Shown here: positions 2,760 through 60,448 of the stretch, piece by piece | Position numbering within the stretch: position 1 is the stretch's first letter | Layout of the letters: each line of letters opens with the position of its first letter | Source: Candidatus Latescibacterota bacterium | Lineage (GTDB): Bacteria; Latescibacterota; UBA2968 | NCBI GenBank assembly: GCA_965116885.1 | Contig: OZ220741.1 | Coordinates: forward strand, 1,504,001-1,568,000 | DNA length: 64,000 nt | Direction: 5' to 3' | Made by a program: the position numbers and the translations under genes | Notes under the pieces: model-generated | The model's database searches: none | What the model was told of the DNA's origin: nothing | What the model saw: the letters and a program-made list of their open reading frames with translations, nothing else

Positions 2760-5700
2760 TCAACCATCATTGGGAGGGAAGTGACTGACAAAGATCGCAA
2801 AATCGGCACTATTAATGGTCCCATCGTCATTCAGATCCATATCAGCATCGAAACCATCCTCACCTTCTGATTTACCAAATGCGGCCACAAAGAGCAAATG
2901 ATCTGACGTATTGACCGCACCATCACCATTAAAATCCCCGATCAGACTGACAGACATAGAGAAACTATCCGTTGCAGTCGTACTTGCATTATCGGTCACG
3001 GTCACAGTAAGTGTGAAACTCCCTGCCGATGTTGGTGTGCCGGTGATGCTACCACTCGAATTGATCGAAAGACCAGAGCCTGTGGTGGGGTTGCTGGACA
3101 TGGCATACGTGTATGGCGTTTGACCTCCTGATACTGATACCTGAATAGGGGTAATAGCACTGTTGGTCTGCACAGCACTGATCTTGACTGTTATATCATC
3201 TATATCTGCGACTGTCAGTGCCGAAACGGGCGCAGGCGCATTTACCGTCAAGGTGAAACTCTCTGTTGCTGTCCTGCTTTCTGCATCGGTCACTGTGACA
3301 GAAATGGTGAACGAGCCAGTCGTTGTTGGTGTGCCGCTGATCTGTCCACTGCTTGAAATAGAGAGACCCGATGGCGCACCGGACATAGAATAGGTGTAGG
3401 GTGTCTGACCACCAGATGCTGAGACTTGAATGGATGTTATGGCCTGATTCTGAGTCGCGGTCACATTCGATATGGATGCAATTGTCAGCGGTGATCTGAC
3501 ACGCATCGTGAAAGAACGCTCTACCTTAGTGGTAGCAGCAGTGCCTGTCGCACCACCACTACCATCACTCACACTCACTGTTACTGTGAAAGTCCCACTC
3601 GCTGTGGGGGTGCCTGTAATGCGACCACTATCTGAAATCGAAAGCCCTGCTCCCGTTTTGGGGTCGCTCGCTATGGAATATGTATAGTTCCCTTGACCAC
3701 CTGATGCTGAGACCTGTATGGGGGTAATTGCCACATTTTGAGTGGCTGTAACATCCGCTATTGTTGCGACTTTCAGGGCTTGAAAAGGCGCAGAAACAGA
3801 CAGGTTAAACGTTGTCGATGCTTCGCCACTTACAGCATCTCGCACGGTTACTGTAATGTCAGATTCGCCAGTCGCTGTGGGTGTACCTTTGATGAGGACT
3901 TTGTCTTGATCAAAGACGATACCTGAGGGTAAGTCAGATGTGGAATACGTATAAGGTTTCCATCCCCCTGAGGCACTCACCGATATATCTGTAATTTCCA
4001 CATTCTGAGTCGCTGTAACATCCGCTATTGACGCAATTGCCAAGGGGGTGGTATTATTCCTGGTATTGTTCGACAATGTCATATCCGTCAGTGTCTGCGT
4101 CCCTTGCAAATCCAGGCCAACCACTGAATGTTGAATCGTAAAATGGCTCATGGTTAAATTGCCGTGATTCCTGATGCCATACCAGTTTCCAGACGCGGGA
4201 GTTGAAGTATCGGAACGAAATACAATAGGCTGATCGCTTGATCCATTGGCGATGATCTTTCCATAGTTGATAATATCGACGCGATTTTCATCTTTCATGT
4301 CGTGAATATCTCGATTGGGGTAAGCCTTGATCGTCGTGCCAGCATCAATTGTCAGGGTTGCGCCAGGACACACCACAATATCACCAATCAGCTTGATTGT
4401 ATCACGCCAGGTCACGTTTTGCACAATTGGGAATTGTTGAAACTCGGTATAAGGAACATTAACCTTATCGTAACCACTCGCTCCCCAACTGCCCCAACCA
4501 CTATGCAACGGCCCAGCAGCAGCCTTACTATCTCCTTGGCTTGGGACGTGTACTGTTCCCCATAATGCTCCTGTACCTAACCAACTCATTTCTGGTGCCA
4601 AACCTTTATTGGGTTGATTTGGATCGGGATTGGGCAGAAGAATTAAATCATACGATTGCGCGATGTCAGGATTTGTGTCCTCAACGCTGGTACTCAGGAC
4701 TATCCCGTCCGTCGTCAGGTCTTCACTAACACTGGCTTTAGCAGCATTGTTATAATTGCCTCCTGTGGGAAATGAACCATGGGAACCTGCTCCTACATAG
4801 ATAACAGGGTGGGTTTCGCCTTCAGCAGGCGCAAATTGTGTCCGGGGGTTGAAAGTCCTTTCGCCAATGCTGGTATAATTCATACCCTTGCTATGGAATT
4901 TGTAGTCAATTCCAACAAGTTCAGCCACTTCTGGATCATAGGACGTTATGCGAACATTAACGTGTGGCCAATCCCCTTCGTGGTCATTTTGAAAATCATT
5001 GAAGGGATAAAAGTAATAATACTGTATTACGACTTGACCGCCTTCTTCAAAAATATGCACGTATGCTGTATGAGGAAAATCTGGATGATCCCCACGCTTA
5101 GGATGCGTAGTGCTATTATAGTAATCATACCAGCTATCTTTACCCTTACTCTCATCATCCCTGTCCCCGTTACCAGGATATTCAAAATGTGCCGTCACCG
5201 GATGGGCTGCAGTAGCGTAATCTCCCGGAGGACGACCGGTATAACTTAAAACTTCAGGTAAAGACGCAAATTTATTCTGTGAAAAATTAATATCAGCATA
5301 CAGATTTTGGTAAGCACTAAGCAGATCAGAACTCCATCCTGACGCGGGATATTGAAAATGTTCTAAAAATTGTCCTGTAGCAGTATGGAGGCTAAACCAA
5401 AGGTTAGAAACGGACTCTGCACCCATGATTTCTACGGGTTCGGGGAAGATCACTTTGCGGTCTGGTTGCGTTGGATTTTTTGTCAAAATTAAAATTGGAG
5501 AAAATTTCTCGGCAAGTTCTATCGAATAAACACTCATACTGAAACTACGCTCCGCAGTGCTGCCGTGATCATCGGTCACTGTCACGATAATTGGGAAAGT
5601 CCCATCCTGTGAGGGCTTACCTGTGATGAAATTATCACTTGATAAAGAGATACCCATCGGCGCGCCAGATATCGAATACGTATAGGGTTCCCAACCGCCA

Positions 5701-19798: not shown

Positions 19799-19834
19799 GA
19801 CCTACCCCCGGCCCCTTCCTACAAGGAAGGGGAG
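19799..19834 (+). repeat. Solo C-tail/hairpin repeat (BoxC-like)
   Basis: GACCTACCCCCGG-CCCCTTCCT-ACA-AGGAAGGGG-AG, near-identical to 58880..58917. Confidence 0.85.
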
Positions 19835-19892
19835 CAAAGCGGATGGGTGTGCCTGTCCTGAGCCATGCCCTGAAGCGAAGGGCAAATAAAAA

Positions 19893-23057
<3,165 letters not shown>

Positions 23058-58044: not shown

Positions 58045-58878
58045 ATGTCTCAAACAGCGGTCTGGTCCCCTGTTGAGGGCACAGTTGATGAGATTCTCGC
58101 GCAGGTTCCGCGGCCGTTCGATGCGATGATGGCGAGCGAGATTCCCGCTGTTATTGTGCGTCGCGCGTTTCCGTCGGATCACTGTGCGGCTCTTATTGAG
58201 CGGTTTTACGAGCGCGGTTTGCTCTACGATCCGCGCAAGGTGGGTGATGGCAGTCCCCGCCGGGTCGATATTGGTACGAGTCTGGGTCACCACGGGAATG
58301 ATCCCGATGCCTTTTACGAACATTCTCGCCAAACGCACGATCTTTTTTCATATTTGTTTGACGGGTACGATGATCCCGTGAAGACGCTGTACCATGCGCT
58401 TGATAGGATGCTTCCGGATAAGCGGGTTATGACGGCTCGGAGCGTTGATGGTCGTCTTTACGGTCCGGCTATTTTTAGGACTTATCACGAGGGCGTGGGG
58501 CATTACCCGCATTACGATTCCGTGTCCAAGCGGTCCAAACGCTACAATTTTACGGTTTCCCGGTTCAGACATCAGTTTGCGGGTGTGCTGTGTTTTCAGA
58601 ATAGTGAGGATCGAGGTGATAGCGGCGAGGGGGTCCTGTACAGGGCACCTATGTCGCCGGCGTTTCAACGTCCTCTCGAGGAGAGGCGATTTCGCGAGTA
58701 CGCGGAGGAGGAGGGGATTGCGCGCGTGCAGGTCAGTCTGGAACCGGGGGATCTCTACTTTTTTTATTCGGAGACGATTCACGAAGTTCCTTTTGTCGCA
58801 GGCTCTCAGCCCCGCGTTGTGCTGGCGTCGTTTATCGGTATGTCTGAAGACGATCCAGAGGTTTATTTGTGGTCATGA
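58045..58878 (+). CDS. Fe(II)/2OG-dependent oxygenase
   Basis: PHYD, LEPGDLYFF..IHEV..R facial-triad pattern. Confidence 0.82.
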   Translation: MSQTAVWSPVEGTVDEILAQVPRPFDAMMASEIPAVIVRRAFPSDHCAALIERFYERGLLYDPRKVGDGSPRRVDIGTSLGHHGNDPDAFYEHSRQTHDLFSYLFDGYDDPVKTLYHALDRMLPDKRVMTARSVDGRLYGPAIFRTYHEGVGHYPHYDSVSKRSKRYNFTVSRFRHQFAGVLCFQNSEDRGDSGEGVLYRAPMSPAFQRPLEERRFREYAEEEGIARVQVSLEPGDLYFFYSETIHEVPFVAGSQPRVVLASFIGMSEDDPEVYLWS

Positions 58879-58879
58879 A

Positions 58880-58917
58880 GACCTACCCCCTAACCCCCTT
58901 CCTACAAGGAAGGGGGA
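58880..58917 (+). repeat. Left C-tail/hairpin repeat flanking the DUF559 gene
   Basis: GACCTACCCCCTAA-CCCCCTTCCT-ACA-AGGAAGGGGG-A. Confidence 0.88.
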
Positions 58918-58975
58918 ACTGTGATCGGTTGATCAACTGTTAGTATTGAAAGATTAGCTGAATACATTTCGTTTT

Positions 58976-59353
58976 ATGAAAAAATCCAAACGAAATATTG
59001 TGATTGGTCAACGCGTTACGCCTGAGAAAGTAAACCTGTCGCGAAGTTTGCGAACTCAGATGACAGCAGAAGAGAAACGGCTCTGGCAACGGTTACGTGC
59101 GAATCGGCTTGATGGCTTTCACTTTCGACGGCAGCAAATTATTGATGGTTTTATTGTCGATTTCTACTGTCATAAAGCTGGCTTGGTAATAGAAGTTGAT
59201 GGCGAAGTTCATAAAGATCAGATCGCTTATGATGCACAACGAGATGAGATTCTCAAAGCGCGCGGATTACAAATTTTACGTATTCCAAATGCTGAAGTCC
59301 GCAACAATTTAGATGGCGTTCTCGAATCCATCAGAGCTTATATTAACACTTAA
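58976..59353 (+). CDS. DUF559 (Vsr-like) endonuclease domain protein
   Basis: MTAEEKRLWQRLR, FRRQ, IVDFYC, LVIEVDG..H, RD..L..G..ILR..N. Confidence 0.93.
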   Translation: MKKSKRNIVIGQRVTPEKVNLSRSLRTQMTAEEKRLWQRLRANRLDGFHFRRQQIIDGFIVDFYCHKAGLVIEVDGEVHKDQIAYDAQRDEILKARGLQILRIPNAEVRNNLDGVLESIRAYINT

Positions 59354-59380
59354 TTTCACCTCCTTCATTTCTCGATTTCT

Positions 59381-59422
59381 CTCCCCCTCTCCTCTCAGGA
59401 GAGGGGGCCGGGGGGAGAGGTC
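59381..59422 (-). repeat. Right C-tail/hairpin repeat, inverted
   Basis: Minus strand GACCTCTCCCCCCGG-CCCCCTCTCCT-GAG-AGGAGAGGGGG-AG. Confidence 0.88.
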
Positions 59423-59446: not shown

Positions 59447-60448
59447 ATGAACCAACCTCCTGAATCATTCGTTCACGTCTATGAAGATCGCCTTCTGGAT
59501 TTTGCTGCGGCTTGTTTTGAAAAGGCGGGGCTTGAGGCCGATCACGCGAGGGTTATCAGCCGCTTGCTGGTCAATAGCGATCTGCGAGGTGTTCGCAGCC
59601 ACGGTACGCGGACTGTGAATGGCTATTGTAAGAGTTTTGAAAATGGGAGTCTCAATCCGCGTCCCAATGTGCGGGTGATCGGTGAGACGCCGACGTGTGC
59701 TGTTATTGATGGGGATGGTACGGTGGGGTATTTGCCGATGGTGCGCGCAGCAGAGCATGCGATTCGCAAAGCTCAAGAGCTGGGTATGGGTATGGGGCTG
59801 GCGCGACATGTGGGGCATATTGGTTCGGCGGGTCATTATGCGCGGATGTGTTCCGAGGCGGGGTGTATTGGTTTTTGCGTGCAGGGCAGGCAGCTGGGCA
59901 ATGCAAAGCGGGATGGGAGAGGACCGCTTCTCGGCTATTTTGGCAATCCTCCAATATGTTTTGCAATTCCCTCTGGGGACGAGCCTCCAATTGTTCTGGA
60001 TGCGGCGACCTGTATTTTGGCGGATTATCAGCGGGGTCCGGAGTTTGAGGCTTTGTTCGAGATGATTCCGGCGGCGTTTTTTAAGAGTATTGGGTACACG
60101 GCGGTGGCTTCGATTATGGGGGGTGGGCTGGCAGGTGCCAGTCTTCCGTCTTCTCATGAGATGAAGGAGAAATGGCCCTCGTCAGGCGCGGGTGGTTGTG
60201 TTCTTGCGATCCGCGTTGATCAGGCGGTTTCCGAGGAGGTTTTCAGGGCTGAGTCAGATCACATGGTGAGAACGGTGCGCGAGACGTACGAGCCGATGCC
60301 GGGACATGATCGCGCGCTGCTGCCGGGTGCGATTGAAGAAGAGCGCATGGCGTTTCACCGCGCCGAGGGTATTCGCTATGGCGAGATGGAGCAGGAAAAC
60401 GCACGCGAGGTTAGTGCGCGTCTGGGGGTGCCGCTTCCCTGGGGTTGA
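59447..60448 (+). CDS. Ldh_2 family (malate/L-lactate dehydrogenase-like) oxidoreductase
   Basis: DLRGVRSHG, HIGSAGHY, GNPPICFAIP, LPG. Confidence 0.9.
   Translation: MNQPPESFVHVYEDRLLDFAAACFEKAGLEADHARVISRLLVNSDLRGVRSHGTRTVNGYCKSFENGSLNPRPNVRVIGETPTCAVIDGDGTVGYLPMVRAAEHAIRKAQELGMGMGLARHVGHIGSAGHYARMCSEAGCIGFCVQGRQLGNAKRDGRGPLLGYFGNPPICFAIPSGDEPPIVLDAATCILADYQRGPEFEALFEMIPAAFFKSIGYTAVASIMGGGLAGASLPSSHEMKEKWPSSGAGGCVLAIRVDQAVSEEVFRAESDHMVRTVRETYEPMPGHDRALLPGAIEEERMAFHRAEGIRYGEMEQENAREVSARLGVPLPWG

Follow-up and report, generated by a model that had tools for sequence, protein, structure and literature searches.

The window analysed here is a stretch of 64,000 nucleotides from a Candidatus Latescibacterota bacterium. 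Between genes for a 2OG oxygenase and an Ldh_2 protein it carries a 543 bp unit, in which two BoxC-type repeats read inward around a single DUF559 gene. A further repeat stands alone elsewhere in the window. The features are as follows.

58880-59422, no strand assigned: the whole unit (repeat, DUF559 gene, repeat), 543 bp, present or absent among related genomes.
58880-58916, + strand: left BoxC-type repeat, type A, with a mirror tail, a TAA linker (C-rich strand) and a 10 bp hairpin.
58976-59353, + strand: DUF559 gene, encoding 125 aa with a predicted Vsr/EDxHD-like nuclease fold.
59383-59422, − strand: right BoxC-type repeat, type B, with a CGG linker and an 11 bp hairpin.
59416-59422, + strand: outer 7 nt of the right repeat; identical or near-identical letters pre-exist in the empty allele.
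19799-19832, + strand: solo repeat; compared with congeners it is inserted, and the junction coincides with the tail's outer end.
19833-19898, + strand: about 65 nt of extra DNA on the hairpin side of the solo repeat.
58045-58878, + strand: upstream host gene, 2OG oxygenase/WelO5-like (context, outside the unit).
59447-60448, + strand: downstream host gene, Ldh_2 (context, outside the unit).

A preliminary description, made from the sequence alone, had reported an AT-richer unit of this size with one DUF559 open reading frame (ORF). The coordinates, the Pfam match and the base composition all agree with this; the DUF559 ORF has a GC content of 41.9%, compared with 54.7% and 56.8% for the neighbouring genes. 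Both ends were also correctly described as perfect hairpins with a 3 nt loop, and with stems that differ yet stay paired. The left hairpin has 10 bp arms at 58894-58903 and 58907-58916, and the right hairpin has 11 bp arms at 59383-59393 and 59397-59407. Where the stem of the right repeat differs from that of the left, its tail differs to match. The G-rich (−) strand of the left repeat is compatible with a purine-motif intrastrand triplex. The solo copy was found where it had been placed, starting at position 19799. The product of the upstream host gene matches WelO5-type halogenases/2OG oxygenases (Pfam PF22814, 67 bits), and the gene stands in a cluster with enolase-family and UxuA-like genes.

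The DUF559 ORF matches PF04480 with a score of 125 bits, against a cut-off of 20.6. Its AlphaFold model has a pLDDT of 86.7. Among solved structures, it most resembles 3hrl and the catalytic domain of the homing endonuclease I-Bth0305I, and after these PvuRts1I and Vsr. For I-Bth0305I (3r3p) the Foldseek E-value is 3e-4 and the sequence profile E-value is 2e-4. Residue D62 aligns with the position of D196, the mutated catalytic residue of I-Bth0305I, and H79 lies close to H213. Residues E73, D75, H79, D86 and R89 are invariant in 80/80 homologues and D62 is present in 78. Taken together, the model and alignments predict a DNA nuclease of the Vsr/EDxHD-type PD-(D/E)XK fold, which has been described as a Vsr-type nicking or cutting domain (PMC3239194). 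In the available text of PMC1189080, YcjD, the Escherichia coli DUF559 protein, appears solely as a predicted PD-(D/E)XK nuclease. No nuclease activity for the family was noted among the papers found in a literature search. Compared with the gene in the related genome G008, the window gene has 11 synonymous and 9 non-synonymous codon differences, which are too few for a selection call.

The 5.56 Mb source genome contains 44 copies of the repeat at 28 sites. Sixteen of these sites are pairs, with a spacer of 10 nt in 13/16, 9 nt in one and 57 nt in one; the remaining pair is the gene unit. Three 6-mer block shuffles of the genome yielded 0, 0 and 0 copies. Similarly, a degenerate pattern gave 62 raw matches, and 0 when reversed. 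Just 7/44 copies fall within any ORF of at least 150 aa, compared with 82% of random positions, and 35/44 lie no more than 1 Mb from the GC-skew origin. The C-rich strand is the leading strand for 17/44 copies, and hence there is no clear strand bias among the 44. The genome encodes one free-standing DUF559 gene and one weak DUF559 domain within a long ORF; no repeat was found close to the latter.

Judged by sequence, the window repeats represent a variant form of the BoxC/PIT/TM triplex motif known from the literature. Holder et al. (2015) described purine-motif intrastrand triplex repeats with type A (TTA) or type B (CCG) loops (PMC4666352). The two types pair as inverted A+B doublets and the copies of E. 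coli K-12 cluster near the origin; the repeats are intergenic, vary among strains and, in the available text, have no known mobility gene (PMC4666352). A function and a mover for BoxC repeats have been lacking since the 1990s according to the same source (PMC4666352), the main text of which contains neither 'ycj' nor 'nuclease'. The repeats described here share the C-rich stem, short loop and G-rich stem, the 3 nt TTA/CCG loop and the second G tract. They also share the inverted A+B pairs, intergenic location, origin-side clustering and variability among strains. The preliminary description had suggested a resemblance to BoxC; the linkers and the A+B pairing are those of PMC4666352, and the identification holds. 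Conversely, stems here are 9-11 bp and, in a direct comparison, the window repeats deviated from the exact TM(ECO) consensus.

The preliminary description had also raised triplex formation, in which case the tail should mirror the stem. To quantify this pattern we used 191 unique motifs, related sequences included, from the gene loci and the source genome. Purine-motif rules were obeyed by 92.7% of tail-stem triads, compared with 83.8% (maximum 85.4% in 1000 trials) when tails were re-dealt among stems. Perfect motifs numbered 104/191, against at most 41 with re-dealt tails. Of 361 tail bases opposite a stem T, 185 were T and 161 were A (T or A in 346/361). Because A and T are interchangeable in the tail, we infer that the G-rich DNA strand is the folded form. 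A folding program returned the hairpin alone. Triplex formation has been demonstrated in vitro only with E. coli oligonucleotides (PMC4666352). On the strength of the tail-stem pattern, the G-rich strand probably adopts a purine-motif triplex inside the cell.

These data also bear on whether the hairpins might instead be elements of transcripts, with the DUF559 protein an RNA-processing nuclease. The copies are mostly intergenic, and mitoribosomal proteins occur among the fold matches, both of which would suit such a system. However, the mitoribosomal matches are weak and rank below the DNA nucleases. Furthermore, the interchange of T and A opposite a stem T fits a purine-motif triplex, which cannot form in RNA (PMC4666352). 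An Rfam search returned two chance matches, far under the cut-off. No terminator-like sites were found and promoter-like sites were no commoner than chance. A structured RNA gene or terminator was dropped as a candidate on these grounds, and we consider an RNA-level system extremely improbable.

We next consider the association between gene and repeat. A first set of loci comprised the best 80 of 374 relatives from species genomes of cyanobacteria, Chloroflexota, Latescibacterota and others. Among these best 80, and counting loci with the flank in question, a repeat lay within about 250 nt upstream of the gene in 67/75 cases and downstream in 50/74. Both sides were flanked at 46/69 loci with full flanks. 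In control windows of like size, placed distally, repeats occurred in 6/123. A second set, from an independent clade, was obtained with E. coli YcjD as the query, after removal of 28 near-E. coli rows and 3 duplicates. In a looser scan of either flank, repeats accompanied 70/72 close homologues from the best 80 of 374 (controls 6/127) and 34/39 YcjD-like homologues (controls 0/56). Hence, the motif is enriched beside DUF559 genes, a check that the preliminary description had proposed, with the proviso that the genomes are kin and counts of homologues and genomes overstate independence. Tails of the CCCTCACCC-type were assigned, with a crude classifier, to 34/54 flanks of YcjD-like genes and 6/129 flanks of close homologues. 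By these sequence classes, the repeat subtype tracks the protein clade.

The arrangement of the repeats is less constant than their presence. For 48 doubly flanked loci, the tails point toward the gene in 28, outward in 9 and in the same direction in 11. The inward-facing inverted repeats of the window, which had been put forward as the layout of the system, correspond to the outward tails and account for 9/48 loci, so the repeats do not qualify as terminal inverted repeats of a fixed kind. In several homologues, repeat arrays surround the gene, and in one the gene is tandemly duplicated. DUF559 domains also occur within long ORFs of 600-800 aa in genomes G032, G034, G038, G045 and G048. A repeat lies at the edge of the DUF559 domain in two 600-800 aa ORFs (locus L020, 1473-1495; locus L023, 1818-1840). 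Such domains, two with a repeat at the edge, suggest in-frame insertions into host genes.

The number of repeats follows the presence of the gene, a correlation that the preliminary description had proposed to examine. In the genus of the source organism, the four genomes with an intact gene have 62, 73, 151 and 615 raw matches. There are 36 in G014, where the gene is deleted, and 0-14 in the 16 remaining genomes. The genome with 615 matches, G010, has about tenfold the number of the source genome. In a second genus, the sole carrier has 33 matches and the other 27 of 28 genomes have 0-12. In a set of 140 genomes from the phylum, each of the 14 that carry a close full-length gene has at least 32 matches. 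Median counts were 67.5 for these 14, 5 for 23 genomes with other DUF559 genes only and 0 for 103 genomes without DUF559, defined as no match at an E-value of 1e-10. Repeats also persist where the gene is absent. Of the 103 genomes, 9 with no DUF559 match still have at least 20 repeat matches and, in genus g7, repeats occur in 15/15 genomes and an intact close gene in 4.

It is possible to imagine that the repeats are spread by some other mover, such as a RAYT or an IS-type transposase that works on a miniature shell, and that the DUF559 gene is mere cargo that repeatedly lands between them. A short inverted outer motif with TNA-like triplet borders does surround 7/44 copies here and 17/86 in relatives, and this IS-like shell might be mobile by itself. 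One filled and empty pair (locus L182 and G000) shows a 3 bp duplication. The TNA-bounded shell may be what we take to be a composite MITE of an IS5-like transposase. However, the shell is missing from most copies, including all three in the window. The source genome does encode one Y1 transposase, situated about 31 kb from the closest repeat copy. None was found in G010, with its 615 matches, or in G014, and G003, G006 and G019 have a Y1 transposase and 0 repeat matches. Because Y1 presence does not follow repeat number, RAYT/Y1 was ruled out as the repeat partner. A cargo role would also not explain why repeat subtype tracks protein clade. We therefore regard another mover as improbable. Shelled BoxC doublets are located in G000:C1 near 238140-238234, 246172-246303, 1370632, 2045157 and 2762094, and at loci L143, L173 and L182. 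Separately, in G008 and G014, doublets at L134, L167, L173, L181, L182 and L261 have an extra piece of 30-60 nt inside the type A hairpin loop, which suggests that this loop is a break or insertion point.

Comparison of congeners permits the history of the window site to be followed. The upstream gene was found in 20/20 congeners, at 21 loci. The full unit is present at one (G008) and a deleted derivative at another (G014), in which the deletion runs from the left hairpin loop to the gene's 3′ end. Spacers of 30-37 nt occur at 12 loci and of 40-56 nt at 2; four loci have other DNA and at one Ldh_2 is not nearby. Hence, empty alleles between the 2OG oxygenase and Ldh_2 genes, which had been named as a check on the preliminary description, exist as a short spacer at 14/21 loci. 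At L034, L039, L053 and L052 (G015, G009 and G018), unrelated inserts of 323-631 nt lie between the two genes; with four congener loci carrying such inserts, this intergenic site is possibly a hot spot for insertion. Trees built for each flanking gene show the three close relatives that branch basally to have empty alleles. This favours a gain, and so a recent arrival of the unit at the window site, although the three carriers do not group as a clade in these trees, which are poorly resolved there. Assembled contigs of two sequencing runs contain the unit and one contig shows the empty allele. Read mapping listed no circular or excision joint, from raw-read runs that gave 0 and 13 reads. A scan of viral contigs for phage carriage, with only two peptide patterns, produced one weak match.

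In most of the 12 closest empty alleles and in one contig (run X1), the outer 6-7 nt of the right repeat are present in the spacer even without the unit. For this reason the target was possibly chosen by microhomology. The preliminary description had noted no target-site duplication. No constant duplication was found; two ancestral alleles are possible at the window site, and a 2 bp duplication there is compatible with just one of them.

From sequence comparison, another three sites resemble gains. The first is that of the solo copy, which is motif-free in 19/20 congener loci with both flanks and filled in one (G015); 14 of the motif-free loci share a 27 nt spacer. The solo copy is present in the gene-free G015 and missing from the gene carrier G008. 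A second copy of the adjoining 65 nt or so, which would identify a donor, was not found in the source genome. Part of this DNA (19845-19885) resembles what we take to be another small palindromic repeat family. Of the two further sites, one is filled solely in G000, G008 and G014 (2/20 other loci) and the other solely in G000 and G008 (1/20 other loci). Hence, two of the three gain-like sites are filled only where the lineage holds or held the unit. On a broader scale, of 60 repeat sites from five relatives, 36 are repeat-free in the source genome, 17 are shared and 7 have no syntenic match. At 50 junction ends, homology ended between −8 and +3 nt from the tag in 17, within 11 nt in 33 (these 17 included) and up to 140 nt away in the rest; these are raw counts from unpolarised, partly redundant pairs. 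Several empty sites keep half a repeat and, by their sequence, look like deletion scars. Fixed transposon ends or a constant target duplication were dropped as candidates, given four orientation classes and ragged junctions. Variable repeat orientation, ragged ends, the lack of a fixed target duplication and repeats that persist where the gene is absent argue against a plain transposon.

Ragged ends and half-repeat scars are compatible with repair, and the G014 deletion begins in the left hairpin loop. Thus, the repeats might spread with no enzyme of their own: the triplex would stall replication, repair would copy or delete the repeat and its neighbours, and DUF559 would be a long-fixed passenger. 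Holder et al. proposed fork stalling for TM repeats and, in the available text, found no mobility gene (PMC4666352). Enzyme-free spread does not, however, predict the near-zero repeat counts of gene-free congeners. Nor does it predict that one gene family should adjoin the repeat, in either orientation, in different phyla. We consider it very improbable.

In E. coli the same partners occur. The ycjD gene of K-12 encodes a DUF559 protein that is 40% identical to the window protein. A TM copy lies 168 nt beyond its stop codon, which bears out the proximity of BoxC and ycjD mentioned in the preliminary description; there is none upstream. At locus L001 of K-12 (1823-1930), part of the ycjD 3′ end occurs a second time, with an intact repeat on one side and a degenerate one on the other, and this duplicate resembles gene-end fragments in the arrays of L008, L011 and L056. 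In this species ycjD has a single fixed locus, at which 3375-3378 of 5426 genomes carry it. In five ycjD-free records, the fabI-sapF gap is occupied by other genes, named eefRABCD (PMC12817139). TM counts were 23, 15, 11, 23 and 27 for five chromosomes with ycjD and 11, 5, 3, 1 and 6 for five without, a comparison of ten chromosomes that is confounded by phylogroup.

A fixed locus might be expected if the nuclease served its host by resolving or cutting repeats that fold where forks stall or in single-stranded DNA that enters the cell, with the repeats accumulating only because they are tolerated or useful in the presence of the gene. Such a role would explain the same association and tail-stem co-variation. 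It would also suit the observations that TMs halt polymerase and are located in unstable regions (PMC4666352). There is a precedent in SsnA, a nuclease that modulates transformation in Neisseria and for which movement of repeats is not reported in the available text (PMC11893778). Conversely, the gene is patchy and at unrelated loci in congeners, tandem gene duplicates and long repeat arrays form around it, and carrier lineages show new repeat sites. We judge a host-serving nuclease to be rather unlikely.

The observations are best accommodated by a DUF559 protein that acts on the repeat and promotes its spread. It is quite likely, from the sequence associations, that the protein is the cognate binder and cutter of the repeat. 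Since the gene lies between two copies, is absent from this site in most relatives and is present in repeat-rich genomes, its product is likely to recognise the repeat and to assist in its spread. We propose that the protein would recognise the folded G-rich strand when exposed in replication or DNA uptake, and would nick DNA beside the folded single-stranded repeat. Host repair would then copy repeat-bearing pieces, sometimes with the gene, into new intergenic sites, and would leave deletions and arrays, together with an occasional ectopic copy whose ends are ragged. The Vsr-type fold is not known to carry out covalent strand transfer. Spread would be driven by the predicted cutting, followed by repair or by template switching where short microhomologies occur, and not by covalent strand transfer; we assign this reading as a whole a probability of about 0.55. 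A bolder formulation, to which we give somewhat less than even odds, is that DUF559/YcjD proteins may be triplex-reading nucleases that define a third class of selfish repeat-and-enzyme pair, beside RAYT/REP and Ssn/NTS. In this class the enzyme would cut, and repair would paste the repeat with or without the gene, from E. coli to cyanobacteria and Latescibacterota and with no transposase.

No paper linking DUF559 or ycjD to BoxC was found in a literature search, which covered sources other than subscription papers such as the original BoxC and PIT reports. In the available text of a REP survey (PMC3733652), boxC is unmentioned. The enzyme-repeat pairing is real and apparently unpublished, and is built on a new fold. 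The YcjD/DUF559 family is widespread and no substrate is known for it; the link gives repeat and enzyme testable partners. At the window locus, empty, full and deleted alleles occur in a densely sampled group of congeners; a contrast of gene and repeat within each of two genera and the exclusion of Y1 are further contributions. The pairing is also testable in E. coli K-12, whose genome contains ycjD and 23 repeats. Should it hold, the proposal would provide a natural enzyme that reads triplex DNA and a third fold converging on a REP-like lifestyle. It would also account for the instability reported at TM sites.

Several characterised systems invite comparison. Classical IS elements and MITEs have fixed terminal inverted repeats and a constant target duplication, neither of which was found here. 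EDxHD homing endonucleases (I-Bth0305I, PMC3239194), together with Vsr, provide the nearest characterised fold. However, the window ORF has no N-terminal NUMOD/HTH region and no intron or intein host, and DUF559 genes occupy many loci rather than a single homing site. The likeness to RAYT (TnpA-REP) proteins and their REP/REPIN/BIME repeats is closer. Both have a single-copy enzyme gene amid cognate repeats (PMC8266576), inverted doublets with a constant spacer (here 10 nt in most pairs) and arrays near the gene, and in both doublets and arrays are gained and lost among relatives. Unlike RAYT systems, the window system has no HUH/Y1 domain, GTAG tag or known covalent strand-transfer route.

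Chenal et al. (2025) described Ssn/NTS, in which a GIY-YIG nuclease gene is flanked by a hairpin repeat that SsnA cleaves only as single-stranded DNA; these authors raise the RAYT analogy themselves (PMC11893778). Here too, a small single-domain nuclease gene is flanked by a hairpin repeat with an asymmetric tail. Repeat number follows the gene in both systems and flanking rates are similar (71% on either side for Ssn). The enzymes differ: Ssn has a GIY-YIG domain, which the window protein lacks, whereas the window protein has the predicted Vsr/EDxHD-type PD-(D/E)XK fold. The window repeat is a predicted triplex, in place of a plain hairpin, and cleavage, demonstrated for Ssn, is for the window protein a prediction from sequence and fold. 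The preliminary description had proposed a REP/RAYT-analogous system with a non-HUH nuclease. The pairing and abundance data partly support this, and the nearest precedent for such a nuclease is Ssn/NTS, not RAYT. By analogy, and at slightly better than even odds, the unit is best read as a putative Ssn/RAYT-like system with a third enzyme fold, that of Vsr/EDxHD.
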